NCBI GenBank assembly: GCA_050701655.1
Contig: JBOGDG010000001.1
Span: forward strand, 1 to 43,390
Direction: 5' to 3'
DNA from: Micromonosporaceae bacterium
Lineage (GTDB): Bacteria > Actinomycetota > Actinomycetes > Mycobacteriales > Micromonosporaceae
DNA: 43,390 nt
In this document: piece after piece, positions 1 to 27,651 of the stretch
How positions within the stretch are numbered: position 1 is the stretch's first letter
Layout: each line of letters opens with the position of its first letter
Notes under the pieces: model-generated
The model's input: only the letters and a program-made list of their open reading frames with translations
Databases searched by the model: none
What the model was told of the DNA's origin: nothing
Made by a program: the position numbers and the translations under genes

Positions 1-267
1 GGTGCCGGCGATGCGCTCGCCGTCCGGGCCGGTGAGCAGCTGCCCGGTCGCCGCCGCCGCGAGCGCGGTCTGCCGGTCCATGGCGCGGGTGCCTTTCGGC
101 CCCAGCACCTCGCGGGCGCTGAATCCCGGCACCTCGCGGTCGGCGCCGGCGCTCCCGGCCTCCCGACCGCCGGCGACCACCCCGCTGTGTACGCCGGCGG
201 CGAAGTCCGCGCTGGTCAACCCGTACGGCGAGACCGCCGACCACCCGGAGATCACGGTACGAGTCAT
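1..267 (-). CDS. Ketosynthase-like partner subunit (KS-beta/chain-length-factor type), 5' part only; the gene runs off the left edge
   Basis: My own reverse translation from the ATG at 267-265 gives MTRTVISGWSAVSPYGLTSADFAAGVHSGVVAGG...GPKGTRAMDRQTALAAAATGQLL. This N-terminus is typical of the second KS-like subunit of discrete (type II) ketosynthase pairs. Its ATG overlaps the upstream KS stop (ATGA, 264-267). It is absent from the ORF track because it is open at the window edge. Confidence 0.6.
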   Translation of the reverse strand, partial: MTRTVISGWSAVSPYGLTSADFAAGVHSGVVAGGREAGSAGADREVPGFSAREVLGPKGTRAMDRQTALAAAATGQLLTGPDGERIAGT

Positions 268-1496
268 GCCCGGTCCTCGCATCGGCTCAGGATCAGCACA
301 GCGTTGTTGCCGCCGAACGCCAGCGCGTTGTTCTGCACCACCCGCAGGTCGGCCTCGACCGCCGTGTTCGGTACGCAGTCCACCGGGCACTCGGGGTCGG
401 TCTCGACGTGATTGATCGTCGGCGGGATGAAGCCGTGGGTGAGCGCCAGCGCGCAGCCGGCCGCGGCCAGTGCGCTCGCCGCGCCGAGGGCGTGCCCCAG
501 CATCGACTTCATCGACACCGTACGGGGCGGCGTGTCCCCGTACACCTGGCGGATGGCGCCCACCTCGACCACGTCGTTGGCCTTGGTGGCGGTGCCGTGC
601 GCGGAGATCAGGTCGACCTCGTCGGGGCTTACCCCGGCGTCCTGGAGCGCCGAGGCGATGCAGCGGGCGACGCTGTCCTGGTTCGGCGCCACCGGGTGGT
701 CGGCGTCGCAGTTGAGGCCGAACCCGGTCAGCTCGGCGTAGTTCCGGGCGCCGCGGGCCCGCGCCGACTCCAGCTCCTCGACCAGCAGCACCCCCGCGCC
801 CTCGCCGGTCAGCATGCCGCCGCGGTCCTTGTCGAACGGCTGGCACCGTTCGGGCGCCATCGCGCCCAGCCGGTAGAAGCCGGCGACCGTCTTGCGGCAC
901 AGCGCGTCGGCGCCGCCGCACACCGCGAAGCTGACCTCGCCGGCCCGGATCGCGTCGACCGCGTTGCCGATCGCGTAGTTGCCCGCCGCGCAGGCGGTGG
1001 GGATCGTGACCGCCTCGACGTCGGTGAGCCCCAGCTCGCGGGCGACCGCGGCGGAGAGTCGGCCGGCGCTGATCCGGCGGGCGATCGTGCGGTCGCGGCT
1101 GTCGGGGCCGCCGGTGACCTCCTGCTCCACCAGCCGGTCCAGCTCGCGGGTCTCGCCGTTGGTGGTGCCGATCGCGACCATGCCGCGCCGCCCGGCCAGC
1201 TCGGCGCCGCCCACCCCGGCATCGGTGAGCGCCATCCGGGCCCCGGCGACCGCGAACTGGCTGGCCCGGCCCAGCTCGCCGACGGGCAGCCGGGTGATCC
1301 ACGGCGCCGGGTCGAAGTCCACCACCTCGCAGGCGATGGAGTGCTCGTACCCGTCGGTAGGGAAGCCGGTGATCGGCTTCGCTCCGTTGCGGCCGGCGCG
1401 CAGCCCGGCGAGGAAGTCATCGGTACCGACGCCGATGCTGGAGATCACGCCGAGCCCGGTCACCACGACCCGGCGCGCTCGGTGTACGGCGGGCAT
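264..1496 (-). CDS. Beta-ketoacyl-ACP synthase (KAS I/II, FabF-like elongating ketosynthase)
   Basis: Part of ORF 264..1718(-). The likely start is the ATG at 1496 (MPAVHRARRVVVTGLGVISSIG). Motifs present: TACAAGN (active-site Cys), DADHPVAP and SAHGTATKAND (the two His), and a GFGGNNA-type C-terminus. It lies 5 nt downstream of the ACP gene. Confidence 0.9.
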   Translation of the reverse strand: MPAVHRARRVVVTGLGVISSIGVGTDDFLAGLRAGRNGAKPITGFPTDGYEHSIACEVVDFDPAPWITRLPVGELGRASQFAVAGARMALTDAGVGGAELAGRRGMVAIGTTNGETRELDRLVEQEVTGGPDSRDRTIARRISAGRLSAAVARELGLTDVEAVTIPTACAAGNYAIGNAVDAIRAGEVSFAVCGGADALCRKTVAGFYRLGAMAPERCQPFDKDRGGMLTGEGAGVLLVEELESARARGARNYAELTGFGLNCDADHPVAPNQDSVARCIASALQDAGVSPDEVDLISAHGTATKANDVVEVGAIRQVYGDTPPRTVSMKSMLGHALGAASALAAAGCALALTHGFIPPTINHVETDPECPVDCVPNTAVEADLRVVQNNALAFGGNNAVLILSRCEDRA

Positions 1497-1501
1497 CGCG
1501 C

Positions 1502-1765
1502 TCAGCTGGCCTGCTCCCAGCCCGCGGCCTCGGCCACGACGGCGTACACCCCGGCGAGGTTGACCATGCGGACCAGGTTGGTCTCGTCGATCTTGATCTC
1601 GAAGGCCTGCTCCAGCCACGCCACGATCTCGACCATCGCCATCGAGTCGGCGCCGTGGTCTTCCCGGAACAGGCTTTCGTCGGTGAGCTCGTCCGGCTCG
1701 ATCTCCAGGACCTCGCACACGACGTCCCTGACCTGCTGCCTGCGATCCTCGATAGTCCCGGTCAC
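1502..1765 (-). CDS. Acyl carrier protein
   Basis: This is the C-terminal 87 aa of ORF 1502..2116(-): VTGTIEDRRQQVRDVVCEVLEIEPDELTDESLFREDHGADSMAMVEIVAWLEQAF. The D-S-M motif is the phosphopantetheine Ser. GTG start at 1765, preceded by GAAGGG. Confidence 0.85.
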   Translation of the reverse strand: MTGTIEDRRQQVRDVVCEVLEIEPDELTDESLFREDHGADSMAMVEIVAWLEQAFEIKIDETNLVRMVNLAGVYAVVAEAAGWEQAS

Positions 1766-1831
1766 GAGGTCACCGCCCTTCCGACCGACAACGCGGGCAC
1801 CGATCGAATCTAGGGTGACGCCGGAGTAGCC

Positions 1832-1882
1832 GCTACCACGGTGGCAGGTAGCTGCCGCGCCCGTAGGTCGGGTGGCTACGGG
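1832..1882. promoter_or_regulatory. Two inverted repeats in the divergent promoter region between the ACP and EamA operons
   Basis: IR1 is GCTACC (1832-1837) with GGTAGC (1847-1852), and has an inner CCACgGTGG palindrome. IR2 is CCCGTAG (1860-1866) with CTACGGG (1876-1882), spacer 9 nt. Read directly from the sequence. The regulatory role is inferred. Confidence 0.3.
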
Positions 1883-1992
1883 CCGGTGTCGGGGCGGAGT
1901 CCTGGCATCTTCCTGCCAGCCGGGTCGGAGCGCGCCGGGATCCGGTGATGATGGGCGACAACCGCCCGCAATTAGGAGGCGCGAACAGCCGC

Positions 1993-3018
1993 ATGGAACC
2001 AGCGACCGGAACCCGGCCCCGTACCGAACGGCTGGCGTTGCTGGCCGCGGGCGTGACGGTGGTGCTCTGGGGGTCGGCGTTCGTATCGATCCGCAGCGCC
2101 GCCGCCAGCTACTCACCCGGTGCCCTCGCGCTGGGCCGGCTGCTGTTGGCCAGCGCGGTACTCGGCGTGATCGTGACTGTACGCCGCGAGGGCTGGCCGG
2201 TACGGGCCGCCTGGCCGGGGATCATCGGCTCCGGCGTGCTGTGGTTCGGCGTCTACATGGTGGCGCTGAACTGGGGCGAGCAGAGTGTCGACGCCGGCAC
2301 CGCCTCCATGGTGGTCGGCATCGGGCCGCTGCTGGTGGCGCTGCTCGCCGGCTGGCTGCTCAAGGAGGGGTTCAGCAGCCGGCTGCTGGCCGGTATTGCG
2401 GTGGCGTTCGCCGGTGTCGTACTGGTCGGCCTGTCGATGTCCGAGGGCGGCCGGTCGTCGGTGGTGGGCGTACTGCTCTGTGTGGTCGCCGCGGTGTCGC
2501 TGGCCGGCGGCGTGGTGGCGCAGAAGCCCGCGCTGCGGCACGGCTCGCCGTGGCAGATCACCACGTTCGGAGCGGTGGTCGGGGCGATCGCCTGCCTGCC
2601 GTTCTCCGGCTCGCTGCTGTCGGGCCTCGCCGAGGCGCCGCTGTCGGCCACCCTCAACATGGTCTACCTCGGGCTGTTCCCGACCGCGCTGGCGTTCACC
2701 ACCTGGGCATACGCGGTGACGCACAGCACCACCGGCAAGATGGCGGCGACCACGTACGCCATCCCCGCCGTCGCGGTGCTGCTCTCGTGGGCGTTCCTGG
2801 GTGAGGTGCCCGGCTCGCTCACGCTGCTCGGCGGTGCGTTGTGCGTCGCCGGGGTGGTGGTCGCCCAGGGCAGCGGCGCCCGCCCCGCGAAGCCCGCGAC
2901 CGAAGCGAGCGCGGCCGACGCGGGCCCCGGGGCCAAGCCAGACGCCGCGACCGAGGTGGAGGCCGAGGCCGGGCGGGTGCCCGACGAGTCCCCCGTGGTG
3001 GCGAAGGACCAGGCGTGA
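1993..3018 (+). CDS. EamA/DMT-family transporter (putative exporter)
   Basis: ORF 1945..3018. The protein has about ten hydrophobic helices and the N-terminal motif LWGSAFVSIR, typical of the EamA family. ATG 1993 is preceded by AGGAGG (1974-1979, 13-nt spacer). The alternative start GTG 1945 would place an in-frame TTA codon at 1972. The stop overlaps the next gene start (GTGA). Confidence 0.8.
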   Translation: MEPATGTRPRTERLALLAAGVTVVLWGSAFVSIRSAAASYSPGALALGRLLLASAVLGVIVTVRREGWPVRAAWPGIIGSGVLWFGVYMVALNWGEQSVDAGTASMVVGIGPLLVALLAGWLLKEGFSSRLLAGIAVAFAGVVLVGLSMSEGGRSSVVGVLLCVVAAVSLAGGVVAQKPALRHGSPWQITTFGAVVGAIACLPFSGSLLSGLAEAPLSATLNMVYLGLFPTALAFTTWAYAVTHSTTGKMAATTYAIPAVAVLLSWAFLGEVPGSLTLLGGALCVAGVVVAQGSGARPAKPATEASAADAGPGAKPDAATEVEAEAGRVPDESPVVAKDQA

Positions 3019-3866
3019 CCTCGGGGGTCGACGCGCGCTGGTTCCGGTACGAGGGCGGGGAGCCGACGGCCCCCGTACGGATCTTCTGCTTCCCCCACGG
3101 CGGCGGCGACCCCAGGGCGTACGCCGAGTGGCAGCCGCACCTGGACGGCACCGCCGACCTGCTGGCGGTACGGGTTCCCGGTCGGGGCTGCCGCGGCGAC
3201 GAGACCCCGCCGGGGAGCATCGCCGAGCTGGCCGACCAGGCGGCGGAGGCGGTTGCGGCGGCGGCGGACCGGCCGAGCTACCTGTTCGGGCACAGTCTCG
3301 GCGGGCTGGTGGGGTTCGAGGTAGCGCGCCGGCTGCGACACCTGCCGGAGCTGCGGCACCTGGTCGCCTCCGGCTGTGCCCCGCCGTCGCTGCTGCCCAC
3401 CGACTACCTGCGCTGGGCGGCGCAGCTCGACGGCCCCGCCTTCGCCCAGGCGATGGGGACCTTCGAGGGCATGTCGCCGGAGATCGTCGCGGATCCGGAG
3501 CTGCAGGAGCTGCTGCTGCCGGACCTGCGGACCGATTGCGTGCTGATCGCCGGGTACGCGTACCGGCCGGCGCCCCGGTTGGCGATCGGCCTCACGCTGG
3601 TCAACGGGCGGGATGACTGGCGGGTCGGCGACGACCTGCTCGGTCCGTGGCGCCACGAGGTGGTCGCCGAGCCGGCCCGGCACTGGCGCGACGGTGGCCA
3701 CTTCTACTTCGCCGACCGGCCCGCGGCGGTGCTCGACGTACTCCGCGCTCTGATCGCCGCCGACTCCGCCGGCCCCGGCACCGCCAAGGCCGACCCCGGC
3801 ACGGCCGAAGCCGACCCCGCCGGCGCAGGCACTTCCGAAGCCGACCACCACGTCGAGCTGATCTAG
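3015..3866 (+). CDS. Type II thioesterase (alpha/beta hydrolase)
   Basis: From ORF 2841..3866, with GTG 3015 overlapping the EamA stop. Motifs: IFCFPHGGGDPRAY, GHSLGG (nucleophile elbow) and a late GGHFY. These are typical of editing or releasing TEII enzymes in PKS/NRPS loci. Confidence 0.85.
   Translation: MTSGVDARWFRYEGGEPTAPVRIFCFPHGGGDPRAYAEWQPHLDGTADLLAVRVPGRGCRGDETPPGSIAELADQAAEAVAAAADRPSYLFGHSLGGLVGFEVARRLRHLPELRHLVASGCAPPSLLPTDYLRWAAQLDGPAFAQAMGTFEGMSPEIVADPELQELLLPDLRTDCVLIAGYAYRPAPRLAIGLTLVNGRDDWRVGDDLLGPWRHEVVAEPARHWRDGGHFYFADRPAAVLDVLRALIAADSAGPGTAKADPGTAEADPAGAGTSEADHHVELI
3773..3844 (+). repeat. Imperfect 21-nt tandem repeat in the 3' tail of the thioesterase gene
   Basis: The units are ccccggcaccgccaaggccga (3773-3793) and ccccggcacggccgaagccga (3794-3814), 18/21 identical. 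A longer third unit ends in gaagccga. The repeat encodes PGTAKAD/PGTAEAD/..GTSEAD. Confidence 0.7.
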
Positions 3867-3875
3867 GAGTCGATC

Positions 3876-4796
3876 ATGGACGGCGACCTCGGGCGACCGG
3901 TGTTCCTGACCACGCCGCGGTACGTGATCGGGGAGATCGAGGAGGACCATGCCGCGGTGGTCAACCTCGCCGAGCGGATCGCGGAGCTGCGGATCCTGCC
4001 GCGGGCCGACTTCTGGGGCTGGGGGAAGATCCGGCGTACTGGCAAGGACATCGCGGCGCTGGCGGTGGAGAGCGGCGCGGCGACGCTGCGCGCCGCGGGT
4101 GGCCCCGAAGTGGACGCGCTGGTGCTGTGCTCGAGCACCTTTCCGGAGGGTACGGGCAGCCACGGCACGCTGGCCCAGACGGTGCTCACGGGCCTGGGGC
4201 TCGACGACGTGGACTTCTTCGGCGTGACCCTGCACAGCTGCGCGAACCTGCTCTCCGGCGTCCAGACCGCCGACGCGATGGTGGCGAGCGGCCGCTACCG
4301 CAGCGTGCTCGTCATCGGCGCCGACCGGGTCACCGACGAACGGATCCGGATGGAGAAGTTCGCGCTGTTCAGCGACGGCGCCGCGAGCGCGCTGGTGACC
4401 GCCGACCAGGGCGACTTCGCGCTGGAGGGCTGTGCGGCGGCGCACAGCGTACGGGAGCTGGACTGGTCCAGCGAGATCAGCTCCGATCTGGCCCGCCGGG
4501 TCAACGAGCGGCTGCACAAGCGCACCGGCGTGGCGCTGGAGGAGGTTCGCGGGCTGCTGCACGCCAACATCTTCAAGCCGATCATCGTGCTCAAGGAGAT
4601 GCAGGCCGGCTTCACCGGCGCGCAGCTCTACACCGACAACATCGCCCGGCTCGGCCACTGCTTCGCCGCGGATCCGCTGATCAATCTAGTCGACCGGATG
4701 GCGGCCGGGGAGATCGAGGACGACGCCCACTACATGCTGGCGTCCAGCGTGCCGGGGATCCGGATCGCCGCCGTACTGAGGAAAGTGCCGCGATGA
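3876..4796 (+). CDS. KASIII (FabH)-like thiolase-fold enzyme
   Basis: ORF 3876..4796, with AGGAG 6 nt upstream of the ATG. FGVTLHSCANLLSGVQTADAMVASGRYRSVLVIGAD aligns by eye with the FabH Cys112 region. FSDGAASALV, LLHANIF (His) and ARLGHCFAADP (the FabH Asn position reads His) are also present. Confidence 0.75.
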   Translation: MDGDLGRPVFLTTPRYVIGEIEEDHAAVVNLAERIAELRILPRADFWGWGKIRRTGKDIAALAVESGAATLRAAGGPEVDALVLCSSTFPEGTGSHGTLAQTVLTGLGLDDVDFFGVTLHSCANLLSGVQTADAMVASGRYRSVLVIGADRVTDERIRMEKFALFSDGAASALVTADQGDFALEGCAAAHSVRELDWSSEISSDLARRVNERLHKRTGVALEEVRGLLHANIFKPIIVLKEMQAGFTGAQLYTDNIARLGHCFAADPLINLVDRMAAGEIEDDAHYMLASSVPGIRIAAVLRKVPR

Positions 4797-6946
4797 TGGC
4801 GCACGGCTTCACGCTTCCGGACACGCTGACCTGCTCGCCGCTGGCACGGTGGGAGTTCAGCCCCGCCACCCGCGACCGGGCGGCGGCGGTGCTCGCCGGC
4901 GGCCCGGAGGCGATCCTGGCGCACCTGCTCACCGACCAGGAGTCGGAGTCCTGCCTGCTCACCGCCAAAACGGTGGTCGACGCCTTCCTGGCCCAAGCAC
5001 CACCCGCCCCCGACGAGATCGTCGCTACGACCCGCGAGCAGCTGGTACGCCAGCTCGCCCCACTGACCACTCTGGAGCCCGAGCTGCGGGAGGCGGTGCT
5101 GCGGCAGCGCGCCCCGATCAGCCTGGCCGGCGGCTGCTGGCTGGACGTGGTCTCGCAGCCCGCCACCCAGCCGTCGGTGATCGTCAACGACCTGTTCCGG
5201 CAGCACTACCGGCTGAAGGGCGAGGGGAGCACCCAGCGCTCGGCGTACCACCGGCGGAAACGGACGCTTGAGGAGAACGGCGTCGAGCTGCCCGAGCTCA
5301 CCGCGAGCGACTTCGGGCGGCGGGCGCACACCCGGCCGCTGACCGCGCTGCACACCGTGTTCTACGTGGCGCTGTCGCGGCTGCCGGCCAGCTACCTCCC
5401 CGAGGTGATCGGGGTGCACTACGCGTTCCACGCGCTCGGGGTGGACGACCTGCTCACCGGTGACGACCCGGTGCTGGACCCGGACGAGCCGCGCGCCGTG
5501 CTGGACCGGTACCTGCTGCTGTGCGGGGACGCCGAGCGGCGCCGGCTGCACGCCGCCGTGGCGCTCACCACGCGGCTGGAGACCGAGCACGTCGCGCTGC
5601 TCACCGAGCTCGCCGACTGGTTCGCCGGGCTGTCGCGGGACGCGAAGGTCGCGGCGATCATCGCCCGGCACGCCCCGTACGCCGGGCGCCAGCACGGCCG
5701 GGTACGGGTCGGCGGCGAGCCGCTCACCGAGACGTTCGCCGACCCGGAGTTCGACCTGACCGCCTTCCTGATCCGGCTGCGCCGCTCCCGCCAGCTCAAG
5801 CCGCTGCCGTCCGGCGGGTGCCGGCTGCTGAACGCGATCCGGTTCGGGGGGCCGATGTTCGGCATCTTCGACGAGCGGGAGGCGGCGACGCTGCGGGAGT
5901 GGGTGGCGGCGGTGCAGGCGGGCAGCCCGGAGCCGACCGAGCTGCCGGTCAACAGGGTGGGCGACGAAGCGGCTCGCCACTGGTCCGACGCGATCGCCGG
6001 CTGCCGACCCGCGGGCGTGGCGTACGCCGATCCCGCGCACCACGACGAGCGCGAGCTGTTCTACCGGCTGGTCAACATCGAGCACTTCCCGAACACGCTC
6101 GCCCAGGCCCGGCACCGGGCCGAGACCGTGCTCGCCGACAGCGAGCTGCTGTTCGCGCACGGCGGCGACGGCGTCTACAGCGACGTCAGCTGGTTCGACT
6201 ACACCCCCGAGGCGCTGCTGGCCCGGGTCGACGACATCTACTGGGGCAAGCTGGTCGGGCCGTACCAGCCGCTCGCCGAGATCCCCGACCGGGACGAGGT
6301 GATCTTCGGGCAGACGCTGCTCGCGCTGGCGGCGCTGGTGGACGGCGCGTGGGCGTACCGGATCGGCAACCTGGGCCGCTACCAGCGGCGCAGCGACGGG
6401 CTGCTGCTCGGGGTGTACGCCGACGAGATGGGGCTCGGCGACGTACGCAAGAACCACATCACGCTGATCCGCCAGGTGCTCGACAACCTGGAGCTGCCGC
6501 TGCCACACATCCGCGACGCGGCGTTCCGCGACCAGGCCGAGCTGCCCGACACCACGTACGGGTATGCGCTGCACCAGCTGTGCCTCTCGCTGTCCCCCGA
6601 CACGCTCTACCAGGAGATCCTCGGCTTCAACCTGGGCATCGAGCTGTCCGGGCTGGGCCGGCAGCGGATGCACGAGGCCCAGAAGCTGCGCGCCCACGGG
6701 CTGGACACCACGTACGAGGACGTACACCTGTCGATCGACAACTTCTCCACCGGCCACGCCCGGCAGGCAGCCGACGCGATCGTGGTGTACCTCGACGACG
6801 TGGCGCGGGTCAGCGGCCCCGGCTCGGTGCAGGCCGAGTGGCGCCGGGTCTGGCGGGGCTACGCCAGCTTCGCGTTCTTCGCCGAGTACGAGCTGGTCAA
6901 GCGGCTCACCGAGAACGCCGGCGACGACGTCGAGCTGATGATCTGA
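4793..6946 (+). CDS. Tandem heme-oxygenase-like (iron-containing redox enzyme / HDO family) protein, 717 aa
   Basis: In-frame part of ORF 3647..6946, starting at ATG 4793 (ATGA overlap with the KASIII-like stop). The C-terminal half carries YADEMGLGDVRKNH (E-x9-H), GFNLGIELSG (E) and VHLSIDNFSTGH (H-x3-D-x5-H). This is the ligand pattern of the CADD/UndA/SznF-type diiron fold. The N-terminal half shows a weaker copy: KGEGSTQRSAYH, VIGVHYAFHALG and IARHAPYAGRQH. Confidence 0.6.
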   Translation: MMAHGFTLPDTLTCSPLARWEFSPATRDRAAAVLAGGPEAILAHLLTDQESESCLLTAKTVVDAFLAQAPPAPDEIVATTREQLVRQLAPLTTLEPELREAVLRQRAPISLAGGCWLDVVSQPATQPSVIVNDLFRQHYRLKGEGSTQRSAYHRRKRTLEENGVELPELTASDFGRRAHTRPLTALHTVFYVALSRLPASYLPEVIGVHYAFHALGVDDLLTGDDPVLDPDEPRAVLDRYLLLCGDAERRRLHAAVALTTRLETEHVALLTELADWFAGLSRDAKVAAIIARHAPYAGRQHGRVRVGGEPLTETFADPEFDLTAFLIRLRRSRQLKPLPSGGCRLLNAIRFGGPMFGIFDEREAATLREWVAAVQAGSPEPTELPVNRVGDEAARHWSDAIAGCRPAGVAYADPAHHDERELFYRLVNIEHFPNTLAQARHRAETVLADSELLFAHGGDGVYSDVSWFDYTPEALLARVDDIYWGKLVGPYQPLAEIPDRDEVIFGQTLLALAALVDGAWAYRIGNLGRYQRRSDGLLLGVYADEMGLGDVRKNHITLIRQVLDNLELPLPHIRDAAFRDQAELPDTTYGYALHQLCLSLSPDTLYQEILGFNLGIELSGLGRQRMHEAQKLRAHGLDTTYEDVHLSIDNFSTGHARQAADAIVVYLDDVARVSGPGSVQAEWRRVWRGYASFAFFAEYELVKRLTENAGDDVELMI

Positions 6947-8097
6947 TGCGTCACCTGGACGAGGCGATACTGCGGCTGCCGTTCTTCGCGCCGCGCCACC
7001 GCGAACTGGCCGAGAAGATCGACACCTGGTGTACGAAGCACGCGGCGCTCTGCCAGGGCCCGCACCCCGACGGCCCGCGCGCCCAGCAGCTGGCGATCCT
7101 GAGTACGCTCGGCGCCGACGGCTGGCTGGCGATGCTCGACACCTCGGGCGAAGCCCCGGAGCTGCGGTCGATCTGCCTGATGCGCGAGGCGCTGGCGTAC
7201 GCCGGGGACCTGGCCGACTACGCGTTCTCGATCCAGGCGCTGTCGGCCACACCGATCCAGCGGCACGGCACCGACCAGCAGCGGCGCCGCTACCTGCCGG
7301 GGCTCGCCGACGGCAGCCTGGTCGGGGCGTTCGCGGTCTCGGAGCACAACGCCGGCTCCGACCTCGCCGCGATCGCGCTGCGCGCGGAGCGTACCGGCGA
7401 CGGCTACCGGCTCACCGGGCACAAGGCGTGGATCGCCAACGGCGACATCGCCGACGTCATCTGCGTGGTGGCGCGCACCGGGGAGGGCCCCGGGGCGCTG
7501 GGGCTCACCGCGTTCCTGGTGCCGGCCGGCACCCCCGGATTCACCGTCGCCGAGCAGGTCGAGACACTGGCGCCCCGCGCTTTCGCGCAGCTGGAGTTCG
7601 ACGGCTGCGTGGTCGGCGAGGACGCGGTGCTCGGCCGCCCCGGCACTGGCTTCATCGTCGCGATGGAGCTGCTGGAGCGCTTCCGGATGACGGTCGGCGC
7701 GGCGGCGGTCGGCTTCGCCCGCCGGGCCGCCGAGGCCGCCCTGGCACACGCCCGCGGCCGTACGATCTACGGCGGCCGGCTGTTCGACCTGCCCACCGTC
7801 AAGGCGACGTTCGCCGACATCGAGCTGAAGCGCAACGCCGCCGCCCTGCTGGTGGCACGCGCCGCCTGGGAAGCCGACGAGCGTGGCGGGCGTACGGTGT
7901 CGAAGCACTCCAGCATCGCCAAGCTGTACGCCACCGAAGTCGCCCAGGAGATCGTGGACGCCTCGCTGCAGCTGTACGGCGCCGCCGGCCTGGTCAGCGG
8001 CAGCGTCACCGAGCGGCTCTACCGCGAGATCCGCTCGCTGCGGATCTACGAGGGCACCTCGGAGATCCAGAAGCAGATCATCGCCGGGTCCCTCTAA
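6946..8097 (+). CDS. Acyl-CoA (or acyl-ACP) dehydrogenase family flavoprotein
   Basis: In-frame part of ORF 5521..8097, starting at ATG 6946 (TGATG overlap with the previous stop). Motifs: AFAVSEHNAGSD, GYRLTGHKAWIANG and a C-terminal RIYEGTSEIQKQII carrying the catalytic Glu. Confidence 0.9.
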   Translation: MRHLDEAILRLPFFAPRHRELAEKIDTWCTKHAALCQGPHPDGPRAQQLAILSTLGADGWLAMLDTSGEAPELRSICLMREALAYAGDLADYAFSIQALSATPIQRHGTDQQRRRYLPGLADGSLVGAFAVSEHNAGSDLAAIALRAERTGDGYRLTGHKAWIANGDIADVICVVARTGEGPGALGLTAFLVPAGTPGFTVAEQVETLAPRAFAQLEFDGCVVGEDAVLGRPGTGFIVAMELLERFRMTVGAAAVGFARRAAEAALAHARGRTIYGGRLFDLPTVKATFADIELKRNAAALLVARAAWEADERGGRTVSKHSSIAKLYATEVAQEIVDASLQLYGAAGLVSGSVTERLYREIRSLRIYEGTSEIQKQIIAGSL

Positions 8098-10439: not shown

Positions 10440-13400
10440 ATGACGTGGGATGCCGCTCGGGGTCAGCGCTGGCTCGGCCGATCAGTGCGATGGTCGCCCC
10501 GGTTGCGACCGCTGATGGTGGTCGCGCTGCTCGCCGCGTTCGCCGGTGCGTCGTTCGGGGTGGTGCCGGCGGGCGCTGCCCTGGCGCTGGAGCGGGCTGC
10601 CGCCGGTTTCGACAGCACACCGGCGCGCGACGCGCTGGTACGGCTCGTCGGTGCCTCGCGGGCCGGCCAGGTGGCCCTGCACCCGCTGGAAAGGGGCGCC
10701 GGCAAGGACCGGTTCACAGTCTCCGCCGAGGGTGGCCGGCTCGTCATCGGCGGCACCACACCGGCGGTGCAGTTGACCGGGTTCGGCTGGTACCTGCGGC
10801 ACGTCGCCCACGCGGACATCTCCGTCAACGGCTCACAGACGAACCTGCCCGAGCGGCTTCCGCTGCCGGCGGAGAGCGTCGAGCGGGACTCGTCGGTGGA
10901 CCACCGCTTCGCGCTCAACGACACCAACGAGGGGTACGCCGGCGCGTACCTGAGCTGGCCGGAGTGGCAGCGCCGGATCGACGTACTCGCCCTGCACGGC
11001 ATAAACGAGATGCTGGTGTACGAGGGCCAGGAAGCCGTCTACCAGCGCACCTTCACCGAATTCGGCTACTCCGCGCAGGACATGCGGGAATGGATCCCGC
11101 AGCCCGGCCACCAGGCGTGGTGGCTGCTGCAGAACATGTGCTGCGTCGACAGCCCGATCTCGCAGCAGCTCATCGACCAGCGGACCAGGCTGGGTAGGAA
11201 AATGGCCGACCGGCTGCGCTCGCTGGGCATGACGCCGGTGCTGCCCGGCTACTTCGGCACCGTTCCCACCGACTTCGAGGTGCGCAACCCCGGCGCGAAC
11301 ACGGTCCCGCAGGGCACCTGGAACCTGCTCGAACGGCCCGACTGGCTGGACCCGACCGACCCGTACTTCGACCGCGTGGCGGCGAGGTTCTACCAGGTGC
11401 AGACCGAGCTGTTCGGCGACAGCACGATGTACAAGATGGACCTGCTGCACGAGGGCGGCAGGGCTGGGAACGTCGACGTGCCCGACGCGTCCCGGGCGGT
11501 CCAGAAGGCGCTCGACACGGCCCACCCGGGCGCGATCTGGACCATCCTCGGCTGGCAGCGCAATCCGCTGCCGGCGACGCTGCAGGCGATCGACCGGTCG
11601 AAGATGTTCATCGTCGACGGCATCACCGAGAAGCCGCACATCACCGACCGGGACTCCGACTTCTTCGGCACCGAGTACGCCTTCGGCACGATCTGGAACT
11701 TCGGCGGCCACACCAACTTCGGCGCCGGCCTCACCGTATGGAACGAGAAGTTCCACGCGTGGCTGAAGCGGCCCGGCAGCAAGATGAACGGCATCGCGTT
11801 GATGCCCGAGGCGATCGACAACAATCCGGCCGCGGTGGCGTTCTTCGCCGACATGCCGTGGCAGGACGGCCCGGTCGACATGGACGAGTGGTTCGCGGAC
11901 TACGCGACCGCGCGGTACGGCGCCGCGGACCCGCACGCGACCGCCGCCTGGCAGACCATCGCCCGCACCGCGTACAGCTGGCCGGCCGGGGCGGACACCG
12001 TACACGTGACTGGTCTTTTCAGCGACCAGCCCGGGCTCGGCAACACCGGCACGGCACTGCGGTACGACATCGCCGCCTTCGACAAGGCGCTGGGCGAGCT
12101 GCTGCGGGTCGATCCGGCGCTGCGCGGCTCCGGTGCGTACCACTACGACCTGGTCGACGTGGCGCGGCAGGTGCTCGCCAACCACAGCCGGATCCAGCTG
12201 CCCCGGATCCGGGCGGCGTACGCGGCGAAGGACGAAGCGCTGTTCGAGCAGCTCACCGAGCAGTGGCTGGACCGGATCGCGCTGCTGGACCGGCTGCTCG
12301 CCACCGACGGCAACTTCCTGTTGGGCAGGTGGCAGCGGGAGGCCGACCGGCAGGCCGCGACCGCGGCCGAGGCGGCGACGCTGGACTACAACCTCAAGTC
12401 CCTGGTGACGCTCTGGGCCACCGGTACGGACCTGCAGGACTACGCACGCCGGGAGTTCAATGGGCTGGTCGGCCACTACTACGCCCACCGCTGGCGGCTC
12501 TACTTCGAAACCCTGACCGAGTCGCTGAAGACCGGCGAGCAGCCGGCCGCCATCGACTGGCTGGCGGTCGCGGAGGAGTGGGCCCGGGCCGGCACCCGGT
12601 TCCCCGCCGAGCCGCGGGGCGACGCGTACGCGGAGGCGAGCACAGTGGCGAGCCTGCCCGCGGGCGAGCTGGCGGTCGGCATCGACCACAAGGGCGTCCG
12701 GCCGGGCGGCACCGTGAAGCTCACCGCCACCTTCCGCAACGCCAACCAGCTGCGCCCGTCCGGTCGGCTCGCGATCGAGCTGGACGTCCCGGACGGCTAC
12801 CAGGTCACGGCGACCACACCGACAGAGGCGGACTCCGTACCCGCCGACGGGACGTTCGCCGCCGGCTGGGACGTGACGGTCCCCGCCGGGGCGGAGTCGG
12901 GCACGGTCGGCTCGTTGACCGCGACCGCGCGCTGGAGCTCGGGCGGCACCCCCGACAAGACCTCCGCCGGTACGGCGCTGCTGGTCGGCGGCACCGTCGG
13001 CGACCCGTACCGGACAGTGGAGAACACCCACGCTGTGTACGCCGAGCGCGGTGACGAGGTCAGTATCGCCGCCGGCGGTGACGACCTGTGGCGGGAGAGC
13101 AACGAGTACGCCGCCGTCTACCGGGAGGCCGCGCTCACCGATGGTGCCGCCGTGGCAACCCGGGTGGTACGCCAGCACGGCTCGTCGGCGTACACCCGGT
13201 CGGGGTTGATGGCCGGCAACGACCTGTCGGCGGCCGGAACGGGCGGCTTCGCCAACATCGCTGTCGCCCCGGAGCACGGCTGTATGTTCAGCTGGGACTC
13301 CGACGCCGACGGGCAGCTCGACTCGTACACCGAGATCGGCGGGTTCGCCCCCGAGGTGCACGTACGGCTCGCCAAGTCCGGGGACCAGCTCACCGGCTCC

Positions 13401-13994
13401 TGCAGCAGCGACGGCAGGAACTGGGCCGTGGTAGGCACCGGCACCGTGCCGGATGCCGCGACCACCGAGGACGTCGGGATGTTCGTCAGCGCGGTCAACC
13501 GGTACACCGGCCAGGAGGCGATCGCCACGTTCGCCGGCGGCATCGCGGACTCACCGTCGACATCGCGCGACGGCTCCGGCGACACCCTGCAGAGCCTGCG
13601 CAAGCCGGTCACCGCGCTGAACTACGAGAACGGCCGGCCACCCACCGCCGCCAACGACGGCAGCCGTGCCAACCGGCCGTACTGGGGTGGGCCGCTGACC
13701 CTCGGCAGCACCTGGTGGCGGGTCGACCTCGGTGCGGTGAACGACGTGTCGCTGATCAACGTCCGCAACTACGTCGACGGCACCCGGTGGTATACGTACC
13801 GCCTGGAGGGCAGCCTCGATGGCACCCACTGGTACACCCTGGGCGGCCGGAGCGGGCCACGTCCGGCGACCGACGCGGGCGACACGACGTACACGGAGGC
13901 GCAGGCCAGGTACGTCCGGGTGGTGGGCTTCAGCAACACGGCCAACAGCACCTTCCACCTCACGGAGGTGAGCGTCTACGGCACCCCTAGTTAA
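10440..13994 (+). CDS. Secreted alpha-N-acetylglucosaminidase (GH89/NAGLU family) with C-terminal accessory domains
   Basis: ORF 10440..13994, with GGAGG 8 nt upstream. The N-terminus has a signal peptide. NAGLU-type blocks are present: FGWYLRHV, YAGAYLSWPEWQRRIDVLALHGINEMLV, WWLLQNMCC, DLLHEGG and FGTIWNFGGHTN. The C-terminus has a concanavalin/DUF1349-like region and an F5/8 type C (discoidin) domain (YVRVVGFSNT..FHLTEVSVYG). Confidence 0.9.
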   Translation: MTWDAARGQRWLGRSVRWSPRLRPLMVVALLAAFAGASFGVVPAGAALALERAAAGFDSTPARDALVRLVGASRAGQVALHPLERGAGKDRFTVSAEGGRLVIGGTTPAVQLTGFGWYLRHVAHADISVNGSQTNLPERLPLPAESVERDSSVDHRFALNDTNEGYAGAYLSWPEWQRRIDVLALHGINEMLVYEGQEAVYQRTFTEFGYSAQDMREWIPQPGHQAWWLLQNMCCVDSPISQQLIDQRTRLGRKMADRLRSLGMTPVLPGYFGTVPTDFEVRNPGANTVPQGTWNLLERPDWLDPTDPYFDRVAARFYQVQTELFGDSTMYKMDLLHEGGRAGNVDVPDASRAVQKALDTAHPGAIWTILGWQRNPLPATLQAIDRSKMFIVDGITEKPHITDRDSDFFGTEYAFGTIWNFGGHTNFGAGLTVWNEKFHAWLKRPGSKMNGIALMPEAIDNNPAAVAFFADMPWQDGPVDMDEWFADYATARYGAADPHATAAWQTIARTAYSWPAGADTVHVTGLFSDQPGLGNTGTALRYDIAAFDKALGELLRVDPALRGSGAYHYDLVDVARQVLANHSRIQLPRIRAAYAAKDEALFEQLTEQWLDRIALLDRLLATDGNFLLGRWQREADRQAATAAEAATLDYNLKSLVTLWATGTDLQDYARREFNGLVGHYYAHRWRLYFETLTESLKTGEQPAAIDWLAVAEEWARAGTRFPAEPRGDAYAEASTVASLPAGELAVGIDHKGVRPGGTVKLTATFRNANQLRPSGRLAIELDVPDGYQVTATTPTEADSVPADGTFAAGWDVTVPAGAESGTVGSLTATARWSSGGTPDKTSAGTALLVGGTVGDPYRTVENTHAVYAERGDEVSIAAGGDDLWRESNEYAAVYREAALTDGAAVATRVVRQHGSSAYTRSGLMAGNDLSAAGTGGFANIAVAPEHGCMFSWDSDADGQLDSYTEIGGFAPEVHVRLAKSGDQLTGSCSSDGRNWAVVGTGTVPDAATTEDVGMFVSAVNRYTGQEAIATFAGGIADSPSTSRDGSGDTLQSLRKPVTALNYENGRPPTAANDGSRANRPYWGGPLTLGSTWWRVDLGAVNDVSLINVRNYVDGTRWYTYRLEGSLDGTHWYTLGGRSGPRPATDAGDTTYTEAQARYVRVVGFSNTANSTFHLTEVSVYGTPS
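12930..12982 (+). repeat. Copy 1 (inside GH89 coding sequence) of a 52/53-nt duplicated segment
   Basis: cgctggagctcgggcggcacccccgacaagacctccgccggtacggcgctgct is identical to 16116-16167 except for one extra C in the C-run. Confidence 0.9.
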
Positions 13995-14013
13995 GAAACC
14001 TAATCGATCAAGG

Positions 14014-14081
14014 CCAATGTATTGACGCTGTGTGGTTGACGCGCCACGATGCTTGACAAGTCCAATACAGCAAGGTATTGG
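14014..14081 (+). promoter_or_regulatory. AT-rich putative promoter/operator patch upstream of the peroxidase gene
   Basis: Three TTGAC boxes (14022, 14036, 14053). CCAATgTATTGa at 14014-14025. A perfect inverted repeat CCAATAC-N6-GTATTGG at 14062-14081. The line 13981-14040 is 28/60 G+C by hand count, against more than 70 percent elsewhere. Confidence 0.35.
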
Positions 14082-14478
14082 GCACCTGGGGAGGCGAGAT
14101 GGCCAGCGTCGAATCGGCCTGGCTGGGACAAGGTCAGGTCTGCGCCGAGAAGGCCAACGCTTCGTCGACAGGCTCGGTCACTGCCCGCCGACGGCATCAT
14201 CCAACGACGTACTGCTCCCTAGCCGGTCGCGCCTGCCACCACGCTGCCTGGCGCGGCTGACGGCCGCCTCGCGCCCGTACCCTCGCATGCGGGCGCGGGG
14301 CGCTCACGTCGCGTCAGGGTCGAACAGCGTCGGTACGCACCCCCGGCAGGAGATCCTGCGTGCGCAATCTCCCTGAACTTCAGAGCCGAGCGCGAGGTCC
14401 GCCACGCCCGGCGATCCATGGCGCGCGCCGACACCGCCTCCCCGGGGTCACCGGCACATCAAGCCATCGGAGACAGCC

Positions 14479-16062
14479 ATGGCAAGCCCAGACCAGGGAC
14501 TACCCACCATCGGTCGCCGCCAGTTGCTCGGCGGCGTCGGCGCCGGTCTCGCCGGCGCTCTGCTGCTCACCGACGTCGAAGCCCTCGCCGCCGAGGTCGA
14601 GGGGCCCGTCGCTACTGCCGCACCCGACCCCCGGTTCAGCCGGATCTTCCAGCTGCCAGCCTTCGCGGACCCCACCTCTTCGGCGGTACGCAACGCCATG
14701 CTCGAGATCGGAAAACCGGGTGGCCTGCTGGACGCCAAGGACCCCTTGCAGGAGGGCCCCGTCCGGCTGATCACCAACCCGGAGCTCAGCCCCAACAACC
14801 GCGACCAGAATGTCGCCGACATGACCGCCGGGACCACCTTCGTGGGCCAGTTCCTGGACCACGACATCACTTTCGACCTCACGTCCCGGCTCGGTGTGGT
14901 CGCCGAGCCCACCCAGACCCGCAACGTGCGGGACGCCCGGTTGGAGCTCGACGCCGTGTACGGCGGCGGGCCCTCGGTCAGCCCGCAGCTCTACCAGTCG
15001 TCGGACCGCGCCAAGTTCCGGATCGAGAGCGGCGGGCGCTTCGAGGACCTGCCCCGCAACAGCAACGGCACCGCGATCATCGCGGATGAACGTAACGACG
15101 AGAACCTGATCATCAGCGGACTGCACGCCGCTTTTCTGCTCGCCCACAACCGGACCGTGGACCACCGGCGGCAGAACAACCTGCCGGGGGACGTCTGGTT
15201 CTACTCCCGGCGCACGATCATCCACCACTGGCAGTGGATCGTGGTGAATGAGTTCCTGCCGCAGTTCGTCGGCCGGGCGCTGGTCGACGACATCCTCCGC
15301 AACGGCCGGCGGTGGTACCGGTTCAGCCGGCCCACGGTGCCGGTGGAGTTCCAGACCGGCACGTACCGGTTCGGGCACAGCATGGTGCGGCCCTCGTACC
15401 GGGCGAACCTGCAAGGCGACCCCGGCGGCGATCCCAACACGGGAGCGCCGGCGTTCTTCGGGTTCATCTTCGACCCGGCGGGCGAGGGCCAGACCGACCC
15501 GGTCGACCTGCGCGGCGGTGCCCGGGCGCCGCGCCGGTTCATCGGCTGGCAGACCTTCTTCGACTTCGGCGGAGACAAGACCCAGCACGTACGCCCGAAC
15601 AAGCGGGTCGACACCCGCATCTCGACTGCGCTGTTCCGGCTGCCGCTGCGGACGATCCCGGGCAGCGAGCTGACGATAACCGCGCTGCCGCAGCGCAACC
15701 TGCTGCGGCACCTCACCTGGTCGCTACCGTCCGGGCAGCGGATCGCCGCGCACACCGGCACGCCGGTGCTCGGCTCCGGCTACTTCCCGGAGCTCAAGCC
15801 CTTCGGGCTCGGGCTGGAGGCCAGCACCCCGCTGTGGTACTACGTCCTGCGCGAGGCGGAGGTCTTCAACGACGGCCGGCGGCTCGGTCCGGTCGGCGGG
15901 CGCATCGTCGCGGAGACGATCCTGGGACTGCTGAAGCTCGACGAGTACTCGTACCTCAACACCGGGTTCCGGCCGTCCCTGCCGAGCCAGACCCCCGGCA
16001 CCTTCAAGATCACCGACCTGCTGCGCTGGGCACGGGTAGATCCCGCCAGCCGCGGTCAATAA
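14479..16062 (+). CDS. Heme peroxidase (animal-heme-peroxidase superfamily) with twin-arginine signal peptide
   Basis: ORF 14479..16062. The N-terminus reads GRRQLLGGVGAGLAGALLL (Tat motif). The distal-His block is FVGQFLDHDITFD and the proximal-His block is TYRFGHSMVRPSY. Confidence 0.85.
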   Translation: MASPDQGLPTIGRRQLLGGVGAGLAGALLLTDVEALAAEVEGPVATAAPDPRFSRIFQLPAFADPTSSAVRNAMLEIGKPGGLLDAKDPLQEGPVRLITNPELSPNNRDQNVADMTAGTTFVGQFLDHDITFDLTSRLGVVAEPTQTRNVRDARLELDAVYGGGPSVSPQLYQSSDRAKFRIESGGRFEDLPRNSNGTAIIADERNDENLIISGLHAAFLLAHNRTVDHRRQNNLPGDVWFYSRRTIIHHWQWIVVNEFLPQFVGRALVDDILRNGRRWYRFSRPTVPVEFQTGTYRFGHSMVRPSYRANLQGDPGGDPNTGAPAFFGFIFDPAGEGQTDPVDLRGGARAPRRFIGWQTFFDFGGDKTQHVRPNKRVDTRISTALFRLPLRTIPGSELTITALPQRNLLRHLTWSLPSGQRIAAHTGTPVLGSGYFPELKPFGLGLEASTPLWYYVLREAEVFNDGRRLGPVGGRIVAETILGLLKLDEYSYLNTGFRPSLPSQTPGTFKITDLLRWARVDPASRGQ

Positions 16063-24813: not shown

Positions 24814-25517
24814 GCAGGCCCATCATCGGCATCAGTACCTACTCCGAAGAGGCCCGCTGGGGGGTGTGGTCGCGTCCCGCGGCGCTACTGCCACGCCGCT
24901 ACCTGGACGCCGTGGTGGCCGCCGGTGGGGTGCCGGTGCTGCTGCCGCCACAGGCCGCGGCGCCCGAGGTGGTGACCGCCGTCGACGCGCTGCTGCTCGC
25001 CGGGGGATCCGACCTCGATCCGTCCACGTACGGCGGCGCCCGGCATCCGGCGCTGGGACCGACGTACCCGGAGCGGGACGCCGCCGAGCTGGCGCTGCTG
25101 ACCGCCGCGCTCGACGCCGGCAAGCCGGTGCTCGGGGTCTGCCGCGGGATGCAGCTGCTCAACATCGCGTTCGGCGGCGGGCTGGACCAGCACCTGCCCG
25201 ACGTGGCCGGGCACACCGCGCACCAGCCGGCCCCTGCCCGCTTCGGCACCACGGCGGTACGGGTCCGCCCGGCCAGCCGCCTCGCGGGAATCGTGGGCAC
25301 GGAGCTGACCGTGCCCTGCTACCACCACCAGGCGGTACGCGGCATCGGCGCCGGCCTGCTCCCCGCCGCGTGGGCGGCCGACGAGACGGTCGAGGCGATC
25401 GAGTACCCCGGCGGGCAGTACGTGCTGGGCGTGCAGTGGCACCCCGAAGAGGGCACCGACGCGCGACTGTTCGCCGCCCTGGTGGAAGCCGCCGAGAAGG
25501 AGTTGGCACACCGATGA
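24810..25517 (+). CDS. Gamma-glutamyl hydrolase, peptidase C26 / class I glutamine amidotransferase-like (PuuD-like)
   Basis: ORF 24810..25517, with a GTGA overlap onto the previous stop. GVCRGMQLLN carries the nucleophile Cys. VQWHPE carries the catalytic His. Confidence 0.85.
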   Translation: MSRPIIGISTYSEEARWGVWSRPAALLPRRYLDAVVAAGGVPVLLPPQAAAPEVVTAVDALLLAGGSDLDPSTYGGARHPALGPTYPERDAAELALLTAALDAGKPVLGVCRGMQLLNIAFGGGLDQHLPDVAGHTAHQPAPARFGTTAVRVRPASRLAGIVGTELTVPCYHHQAVRGIGAGLLPAAWAADETVEAIEYPGGQYVLGVQWHPEEGTDARLFAALVEAAEKELAHR

Positions 25518-26875: not shown

Positions 26876-26877
26876 GC

Positions 26878-27642: not shown

Positions 27643-27651
27643 CCTGCGGTC

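Follow-up and report, generated by a model that had tools for sequence, protein, structure and literature searches.

Which product is made by an actinomycete locus in which the genes of a discrete polyketide synthase (PKS) face an operon encoding a thioesterase (TE), a homologue of ketoacyl synthase III (KASIII), a large haem-oxygenase-like diiron oxidase (HDO) protein and a flavoenzyme of the acyl-CoA dehydrogenase (ACAD) family? This question is raised by the first 8097 positions of contig JBOGDG010000001.1 of a Micromonosporaceae bacterium (assembly GCA_050701655.1); the whole contig, 43,390 nucleotides long, is the window of this analysis. The minus-strand genes encode an ACP (acyl carrier protein), a KS (ketosynthase) and the truncated partner of the latter, a chain-length factor (CLF), and the plus-strand operon also includes an EamA transporter gene. 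An earlier note, made from the sequence alone, had found this architecture unassignable to any characterised pathway and had suggested a product derived from a fatty acid or polyene. The family can now be assigned, as the plus-strand enzymes are counterparts of AzsB, AzsD, AzsE and AzsF of azaserine biosynthesis, two of them also of Tri13 and Tri22 of triacsin biosynthesis, whereas the combination with the KS, CLF, ACP and ketoreductase (KR) genes indeed has no known product. In our reading, to which we give a probability of roughly two in three, the window contains the right-hand third of a cluster of about 18 genes of the hydrazinoacetate/hydrazonoacetate (HAA/HYAA) pathway, in which a complete azaserine-type hydrazone pathway is accompanied by an inserted KS/CLF/ACP/KR set.

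The HAA/HYAA pathway family includes azaserine, thrazarine, N-nitroglycine and triacsin. For the comparison of gene neighbourhoods, 80 loci from distinct species were fetched and scored with the window proteins and with the left-flank proteins of the closest relative, and the counts refer to the 67 loci that span 20 kb or more. In every one of these the HDO gene has the KASIII-like gene immediately upstream, and a TE is present in 63, at the AzsB position. An ACAD gene follows the HDO gene in 48 loci and is missing from the thrazarine-type class, in agreement with the thrazarine clusters, which are without AzsF and AzsG (PMC12376268). EamA homologues are found in 36 loci, azaserine-type ones among them, and the pair of GNAT and C45/AAT genes in 35. 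In 55 of the 67 loci the KASIII/HDO pair occurs without any PKS. The order in these PKS-free loci is TE, PEP-mutase/isocitrate-lyase-like protein, KASIII-like protein, HDO, ACAD, cytochrome P450 (P450), two saccharopine-dehydrogenase-like proteins, ATP-grasp, MFS, Lys N-hydroxylase, FAD oxidase and a cupin-MetRS-carrier protein fusion. Checked against Table 1 of PMC10445470, the azsB-azsN order is matched exactly by Streptomyces sp. 11x1, S. inhibens and Actinophytocola. In azaserine biosynthesis (azs of Streptomyces fragilis and aza of Glycomyces harbinensis) the TE, KASIII-like, HDO and ACAD genes have the same order and orientation as in the window, and by synteny and sequence these four window genes correspond to azsB, azsD, azsE and azsF. 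The plus-strand operon is, with high confidence, the AzsB/D/E/F module of an N-N pathway.

For three of these four enzymes the reaction is known from the literature on the homologues. AzsF and Tri22 convert hydrazinoacetyl-carrier protein (CP) into hydrazonoacetyl-CP, and AzsD and Tri13 move the hydrazonoacetyl unit from carrier to carrier (PMC10445470; 10.1101/2021.05.12.443849). AzsB frees the ester bound to the nonribosomal peptide synthetase (NRPS), and AzsE is described as an 'iron-containing redox enzyme' with undemonstrated function (PMC10445470). The window ACAD shares 58-65% identity with the ACADs encoded after the HDO in azaserine-type loci, at the azsF position, and its best NCBIfam matches include the carrier-protein-dependent RedW/PigA, below cut-off; it is a predicted hydrazinoacetyl-CP dehydrogenase, not the fatty-acyl dehydrogenase that had been supposed. 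In the KASIII-like protein the catalytic Cys is conserved in 81 of 81 homologues, and all 81 have a His at the position of FabH Asn274. NCBIfam gives FabH matches for this protein that are sub-threshold only. It is a predicted carrier-to-carrier hydrazonoacetyl transferase, and this role takes the place of the priming Claisen condensation of the earlier note. The gene at 3876-4796 encodes a FabH-sized protein with a Cys/His/His-type site. Relatedness to the cispentacin enzymes AmcF and AmcB was considered and rejected (199.7 versus 325 bits and 31.4 versus 80 bits, respectively). The EamA protein is a probable exporter.

The KS/CLF/ACP/KR set is present in 12 of the 67 loci, always in the architecture of the window, and also in the shorter contig L010. 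The hosts of this PKS class are Actinomadura, Spirillospora, Actinophytocola and metagenome-assembled genomes of Micromonosporaceae and Streptosporangiaceae. The gene order starts with AMP-ligase, CP, GNAT, AAT and a 278-aa LuxR-like protein, continues divergently with KR, CLF, KS and ACP, and ends with EamA, TE, KASIII-like protein, HDO and ACAD. This co-conservation of the divergent operons, seen in several genera and families, bears out the proposal that they form a single biosynthetic locus and serve a single pathway; a lack of co-conservation, which the earlier note had named as an argument against a single pathway, is not what the loci show. A loading set consisting of GNAT, AMP-ligase, carrier protein and C45/AAT peptidase occurs in 11 of the 12 PKS-class loci, the GNAT gene of L005 being cut by the flank. 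For the 278-aa neighbour a weak match to a LuxR/GerE HTH was obtained, and, not being a protein of the hotdog fold, it was rejected as a dehydratase.

Complete clusters were found in two Actinomadura genomes (L087 and L088), reached via their AMP-ligase genes. Upstream, these clusters encode a Lys N6-hydroxylase, a cupin as a separate open reading frame (ORF), an FAD oxidase (DAO), a MetRS-like protein bearing a carrier domain at its C-terminus, and an NRPS. The cupin ORF, which supplies the cupin domain of the hydrazine synthetase, encodes about 110 aa, and the FAD-oxidase gene lies between it and the gene of the MetRS-like-CP protein (L087:3168-6657 and L088:3258-6663), unlike in AzsN and Tri28, where the cupin and MetRS-like domains are fused. 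The NRPS has the domain order TubC_N-Cy/C-A-CP and keeps the DGLVMD motif of AzsO; its A domain is about 70% identical to those of the azs- and thz-type NRPSs, with near-identical pocket segments. The NRPS of Actinomadura sp. LHW52907 is also present in the motif table of AzsO homologues in the supplement of PMC10445470. The left-flank genes of the window-type clusters are counterparts of AzsP, AzsQ, AzsS and AzsT. Members of the PKS class have been listed in published genome-mining tables as predicted 'azaserine-like hydrazone oxidation' clusters with unassigned product (Actinomadura sp. LHW52907, NZ_QVNQ01000005; Actinophytocola xinjiangensis, NZ_MSIF01000001), and our literature search brought up no paper in which the KS/CLF-containing subclass or its product is noted or characterised. 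In A. spongiicola LHW52907 the cluster lies at about 677-700 kb of NZ_QVNQ01000005.

The syntenic relatives of the window share with azaserine the HAA genes, the AMP-ligase, CP, GNAT and C45 peptidase and the Cy-A-CP NRPS. Several differences set them apart from it. The window class adds KS, CLF, ACP and KR, whereas the azs clusters described by Shikai et al. (2023) are without PKS genes (PMC10445470), and it is without the isocitrate-lyase-like AzsC, the P450 AzsG, AzsH/I, AzsJ and AzsK. AzsG is encoded in 34 of 36 azaserine-class loci, in 1 of 18 thrazarine-class loci and in none of the 12 PKS-class loci, and it is also not found in L087 and L088; in the window no P450 is encoded between the ACAD gene and the unrelated downstream genes. 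In a neighbour-joining tree, the HDO proteins fall into three groups that follow the cluster class: 14 PKS-class sequences together with L004, the ACAD-less thrazarine type with 23 plus 3 sequences, and the remaining, azaserine-type sequences. L004 is a 5-kb fragment with the same right arm as the PKS class. Because the HDOs form a clade of their own and the azaserine P450 is absent, the PKS-class clusters are a third, uncharacterised subclass of hydrazone-pathway clusters, in which a triacsin-like polyketide extension is combined with an azaserine-like NRPS and HDO.

These differences also bear on a simpler explanation, in which the clusters make plain azaserine, or a trivially different O-diazoacetyl amino acid, and the KS/CLF/ACP/KR genes are a separate small pathway inside the cluster. 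All biochemically shown azaserine genes have counterparts (HAA synthesis, AzsS/P/Q/T/F, AzsD, AzsO and AzsB), the MetRS-like protein retains its carrier domain and the NRPS retains the ester-forming Cy motif, as would be expected for such a product. A separate pathway is nevertheless difficult to reconcile with PKS genes that occupy the same internal position in the 12 loci and L010, across genera, and with the distinct clade of the PKS-class HDOs. The losses listed above are also at odds with azaserine itself, as Shikai et al. count AzsG in the 'minimal set' for this compound (PMC10445470). We regard this explanation as unlikely.

The window KS has the Cys-His-His triad, and its best match in the Protein Data Bank (PDB) is 6kxd_A with 540 bits, followed by a second match with 334 bits and FabF with about 250 bits; 6KXD serves as the example of a typical KS-CLF complex in PMC10698177, which cites it together with the paper of Du et al. 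2020 on a highly reducing type II PKS. The 89-aa partner aligns to the N-termini of the full-length CLFs of the relatives L001, L084 and L088, and in the full-length CLFs of the relatives the active-site Cys and both His are absent. KS and partner form a genuine KS/CLF pair from the highly reducing type II systems to which the earlier note had likened such gene sets. An origin in primary fatty-acid synthesis was considered and rejected: the KS scores 339.9 bits against the NCBIfam FabF equivalog (cut-off 493.75) and the ACP 44.2 against the ACP equivalog (cut-off 70.45), and the KS is paired with a CLF in a secondary-metabolite cluster. When compared with the ishigamide-type highly reducing type II PKS represented by 6KXD, the window class has a very similar KS, a Cys-less CLF, a discrete ACP and a KR, but typical ishigamide-type members have dehydratases and often several KS pairs, whereas no dehydratase is encoded in the window class, which sits within an N-N pathway. 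The KS family has more than 6000 members. The nearest checked KS relatives beyond the window-type clusters belong to multi-KS highly reducing type II PKS clusters (L089 and L090), and L090 encodes ApeI/ApeP-like dehydratases with an adjacent NRPS. The window KS is as close to the KSs of these two clusters (69-72%) as to those of other window-type clusters (about 70%), which suggests that it was recently recruited from the generic highly reducing type II PKS pool. By analogy with Tri20 of triacsin, the ACP is the probable acceptor of a hydrazone starter.

In the triacsin clusters (tri; Kitasatospora aureofaciens and Streptomyces tsukubaensis), Tri29-31 and Tri22 build HYAA on a carrier protein, Tri13 moves it from Tri30 to the ACP Tri20, and the KS/CLF pair Tri6/7 together with the KR Tri5 extends it (10.1101/2021.05.12.443849). 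The window class has the same types of components, namely a Tri13-like transferase, a discrete ACP, KS/CLF and KR, and would share with triacsin the priming with a hydrazone. This common logic also speaks for a triacsin-type pathway proper, in which the polyketide grown from a hydrazone starter would, after its release, be converted into an N-hydroxytriazene by N-nitrosation with nitrite. The enzymes specific to triacsin are the dehydratases Tri11/12, the nitrite-forming Tri16/21, the ATP-dependent N-nitrosating Tri17 and the decarboxylase Tri9/10. No Pfam families like those of Tri16/Tri21, Tri17 or Tri11/12 were found in the window or in the gene lists of L001, L084, L087 and L088, in a comparison made at the level of families and not with the Tri sequences themselves, and nothing like Tri9/10 occurs in the lists of these four loci. 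The NRPS, TE and HDO of the window class are in turn unmentioned in the description of the triacsin pathway and in the Tri homologue column of the azs table, which has no Tri counterpart for an AzsE-type HDO or an AzsO-type NRPS (PMC10445470). A triacsin-type product is therefore given very little credence, the least of the explanations weighed here, and the azaserine-type pathway with an inserted polyketide step is preferred.

The 717-aa HDO protein belongs to a large actinomycete family. Members of this family, full-length homologues that are 54-70% identical, are named only 'iron-containing redox enzyme family protein', and the window protein is 54-57% identical to the azaserine-type HDOs. 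Pfam detects PF14518 only at residues 515-687 (54.4 bits versus a gathering threshold of 28.9), NCBIfam has no model for this HDO, and a PDB sequence search with an 18-sequence profile of the protein gave nothing meaningful, only ClpP at E 0.3. An AlphaFold2 model computed from 60 homologues has a pLDDT of 89.3 and a pTM of 0.90. When this full model is compared with known structures by Foldseek, all matches at a probability of at least 0.97 are HDO N-oxygenases or structural homologues (SznF, HrmI, RohS, FlcD and 3BJD). Residues D517, E545, H555, E617, H645, D649 and H655 are invariant in the 60 homologues, except that D517 is replaced by Glu in seven, and their spacing is identical to that of the ligands reported for ThzE, D575, E603, H613, E675, H703, D707 and H713 (PMC12376268). 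The C-terminal domain has a complete predicted diiron site.

The tandem nature of the protein, which is not visible by Pfam, had been proposed in the earlier note and is corroborated by two comparisons. The profiles of the N-half and the C-half match each other (hhalign probability 90.4%, E 1.4e-6), and the N-half modelled alone (AlphaFold, pLDDT 84.7) matches SznF, RohS, FlcD and HrmI in Foldseek at a probability of about 1.0, with further matches to TenA, CADD-like proteins, BesC (rank 30, weak) and PqqC. Leu and Ala occupy the N-half positions of the C-half ligands E545 and H555, so that the N-half is probably a degenerate duplicate. Seven residues of the N-half (residues 1-310, positions 4793-5722), H187, E204, H209, E263, H266, H293 and H301, are invariant or nearly so in the 60 homologues. 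Like SznF, RohS, HrmI and FlcD, the protein has the predicted HDO fold in both halves and diiron-type His/Asp/Glu ligands in the C-domain; unlike these, it has two HDO-fold domains in one 717-aa chain and no detectable sequence similarity to any solved structure.

In the earlier note, HDO proteins had been credited with oxidative decarboxylation, C-C cleavage and N-oxygenation; N-oxygenation is favoured by the matches to N-oxygenases, whereas decarboxylation of the UndA/BesC type and C-C cleavage find no support. Chemistry of the UndA/BesC type was rejected on the top fold matches and on the azaserine-type gene context. The model of the earlier note, in which KS, CLF and ACP build a fatty-acyl or polyene chain, with the KASIII homologue as priming enzyme and the ACAD as desaturase, and the HDO turns this chain into an olefin or similar product by oxidative decarboxylation or cleavage, could point to a KS of the highly reducing type II family and to UndA and BesC among the HDO enzymes, with the weak BesC match of the N-half. 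It is opposed by the four plus-strand enzymes, whose Azs homologues act on hydrazino- or hydrazonoacetyl carrier proteins, by the many loci that have the KASIII/HDO pair without a PKS, by the hydrazine-forming genes in the same cluster in relatives, by the N-oxygenases at the top of the fold matches and by the absence of a dehydratase for polyene formation from the gene lists of the window class. This model is highly improbable, and instead of a fatty-acid-derived olefin the product is probably a new diazo-type compound, an N-N metabolite with a hydrazone or diazo group being what the AzsB/D/E/F synteny leads one to expect.

The identity of the azaserine hydrazone oxidase was still unsettled up to 2026 (PMC11705231; PMC13061610). 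AzsE and ThzE have been proposed as the diazo-forming oxidase (PMC12376268), and knockout of NngH has shown that this HDO is essential for N-nitroglycine, with hydrazone N-hydroxylation as the proposed reaction (PMC13274452); the alternative candidate for diazo formation is the P450 AzsG. The oxidoreductases of the PKS class comprise Lys N-hydroxylase, FAD oxidase, ACAD, KR and HDO, and with AzsG absent the HDO is the only oxidase without an assigned role. Sequence and model together make the tandem HDO a candidate hydrazone N-oxidase. It is conceivable that the HDO has another role, such as scaffold, docking partner of a carrier protein or carbon hydroxylase, and that the product stays a hydrazone or hydrazine. 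No in vitro activity of AzsE was obtained despite extensive attempts, in which released HDA-Ser served as the substrate (PMC10445470), and the N-half, without aligned equivalents of two metal ligands, might be non-catalytic. Such a role is hard to combine with the near-invariance of the seven C-domain ligands in the 60 homologues, with the NngH knockout, and with the fact that the HDO is the sole oxidase common to the azaserine, thrazarine and N-nitroglycine clusters and the PKS class. It is considered improbable.

In the proposed route, HAA would be made from lysine and glycine by the Lys N6-hydroxylase, the cupin, the MetRS-like-CP protein and the FAD oxidase, whose genes would lie beyond the contig end. 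HAA would then be succinylated by the GNAT protein, loaded by the AMP-ligase onto the CP and desuccinylated by the C45/AAT peptidase, and the ACAD would turn HAA-CP into HYAA-CP, a hydrazone. The KASIII-like protein may, in analogy to Tri13 and Tri20, transfer HYAA via its conserved Cys to the discrete ACP. We infer that the PKS acts on this starter, the KS/CLF pair and the KR encoded upstream extending it with malonyl units, probably by one or few beta-hydroxy extensions because no dehydratase is encoded. The AzsO-like Cy-A-CP NRPS would esterify the acyl group to serine, the presumed acceptor, and the TE would release the product. The C-terminal diiron site of the HDO may oxidise the hydrazone at its terminal nitrogen, so that a diazo or similar N-oxidised group results, and the product would be exported by EamA. 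The early steps of this route lean on reactions published for homologues, and the present analysis contributes gene identities, synteny, co-conservation, active-site conservation and predicted folds. It is possible, although we put the chance somewhat below even, that the window-type clusters make a polyketide-extended diazo or N-oxidised hydrazone amino-acid ester, for example an O-(4-diazo-3-hydroxybutanoyl)-serine-like compound or a longer one, with the tandem HDO as N-oxidase.

Several observations weigh against this reading. The window itself shows no HAA, loading or NRPS genes, as the contig ends in the CLF gene, and the presence of these genes in this organism is deduced from synteny with relatives that are 60-80% identical. 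The KS has no specific relationship to hydrazone-pathway KSs; it is 68-72% identical to the KSs of generic polyene/cinnamoyl clusters, the same as to the other window-type KSs, and because the nearest checked outgroups are such generic multi-KS clusters (L089 and L090), the KS phylogeny does not discriminate. Neither a dehydratase nor an enoylreductase nor a malonyl transferase is encoded in the gene lists of the PKS class, L001, L084, L087 and L088 included. The cluster retains the MetRS-like-CP fusion of azaserine, so that HYAA could bypass the PKS. No PKS-class cluster has a known product. The HDO reaction has never been reconstituted, the AzsE attempts mentioned above having failed, and in another lineage the step from hydrazone to diazo is carried out by Dob3, an unrelated diiron enzyme of the ferritin-like type.

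Among known systems, that lineage comes nearest in function to the proposed route, with PKS extension and diiron oxidation combined. In the dob pathway of Nocardia ninae (4-diazo-3-oxobutanoic acid and diazoacetone), carrier-bound HYAA is extended by a PKS with malonate and a diiron enzyme generates the diazo group. The dob pathway uses a type I PKS, Dob2 (TE-KS-AT-ACP), and the ferritin-like Dob3, and has no NRPS esterification, whereas the window class has a type II KS/CLF pair and a haem-oxygenase-like protein. The thrazarine (thz) and N-nitroglycine (nng) clusters have, as the window does, an AzsD-like transferase and an AzsE-like HDO (ThzE and NngH, respectively); unlike the window class, they have no PKS. 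The thz cluster has a DMT transporter gene, thzX, which can be likened to the window EamA gene, lacks an ACAD and uses threonine instead of glycine (PMC12376268), and in the nng cluster a second P450 is added and the product is a nitramine (PMC13274452).

The features of the locus are collected in the table. At a G+C content of 72%, raw ORF lists of the window are uninformative, and genes were called from a frame plot of third-codon-position GC (GC3), a GC3-based gene call and translations, with families assigned by Pfam and NCBIfam. All eight genes in 1-8097 are backed by the frame plot and translations, and the sequence itself shows the overlaps (minus-strand ATGA at 264-267, then GTGA at 3015, ATGA at 4793 and TGATG at 6944), so that the genes, coordinates and overlaps of the earlier note are all real. 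The EamA start is the sole uncertain coordinate, GTG 1945 or 2038, and the intergenic region reaches 2037 if 2038 is used. The start at GTG 1945 adds an N-terminal extension of 31 residues with weak coding signal, and the GC3-based call favours 2038.

Table. Genes and intergenic region of the locus at the left end of the window (1-43390), with the basis of each call
Feature	Position	Strand	Basis
CLF (KS-like partner), N-terminal 89 aa only	1-267	minus	GC3 frame; runs off contig
KS-alpha of highly reducing type II PKS	264-1496	minus	Pfam ketoacyl-synt N and C domains
Discrete ACP with DSM phosphopantetheine motif	1502-1765	minus	PF00550, 50.7 bits
Intergenic (promoter) region separating the divergent ACP and EamA operons	1766-1944		No coding signal in frame plot
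EamA/DMT-family transporter	1945 or 2038-3018	plus	PF00892, 132.7 bits
Type II TE, AzsB counterpart	3015-3866	plus	PF00975, 133.6 bits
KASIII-like acyltransferase, AzsD/Tri13 counterpart	3876-4796	plus	Weak FabH matches
717-aa two-domain HDO protein, AzsE/ThzE/NngH counterpart	4793-6946	plus	PF14518
ACAD-family flavoenzyme, AzsF/Tri22 counterpart	6946-8097	plus	All three ACAD Pfam domains

The left end of the window falls inside the CLF gene and cuts the cluster there; this truncation is due to the end of the assembly contig and not to the choice of the window. Because the genes from 8.4 kb on are unrelated to the cluster, the right border is placed at about 8100, with the ACAD gene as the last cluster gene. 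To the right of the cluster lie genes of a DUF1801 protein, a ROK regulator, a NAGLU glycosidase, a peroxidase-like protein and GTP cyclohydrolase I. The NAGLU-family glycosidase, beside the ROK regulator in 10515-16062, has 1159 residues with NPCBM-associated and F5/8 type C domains, and is followed by a 512-aa protein with a partial animal-haem-peroxidase match. Further on, 23449-28389 encodes a glutamine-synthetase-like protein, Peptidase_C26, an aldehyde dehydrogenase, an SDR protein and a GntR regulator, which resemble a gamma-glutamyl-polyamine (puu-like) catabolic set, and ABC sugar-type transporter genes come after it (28.5-34.6 kb). The segment 39544-43075 has a G+C content of about 65-66% and a weak GC3 signal, encodes HTH-GGDEF, TPR and Imm10 immunity-like proteins, and may have been horizontally acquired. 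Rfam at gathering thresholds gave no match anywhere in the whole window.

Already published are the pathway family, what three of the five plus-strand genes do and the listing of 'azaserine-like' clusters by genome mining; the finding for this reason extends known biology and does not constitute a new kind of system. Fewer than 30 diazo natural products have been reported (PMC13061610), and these rare compounds are important in pharmacology and of use as carbene precursors. The PKS-class clusters form a coherent subclass across several genera that points to a probable new N-N metabolite, and, by keeping a single candidate oxidase, they offer a simpler system for probing the function of the HDO. 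If the proposed role is true, the azaserine family would have in the tandem HDO its long-sought hydrazone N-oxidase, and the P450-free class would be the cleanest genetic system in which to prove it.

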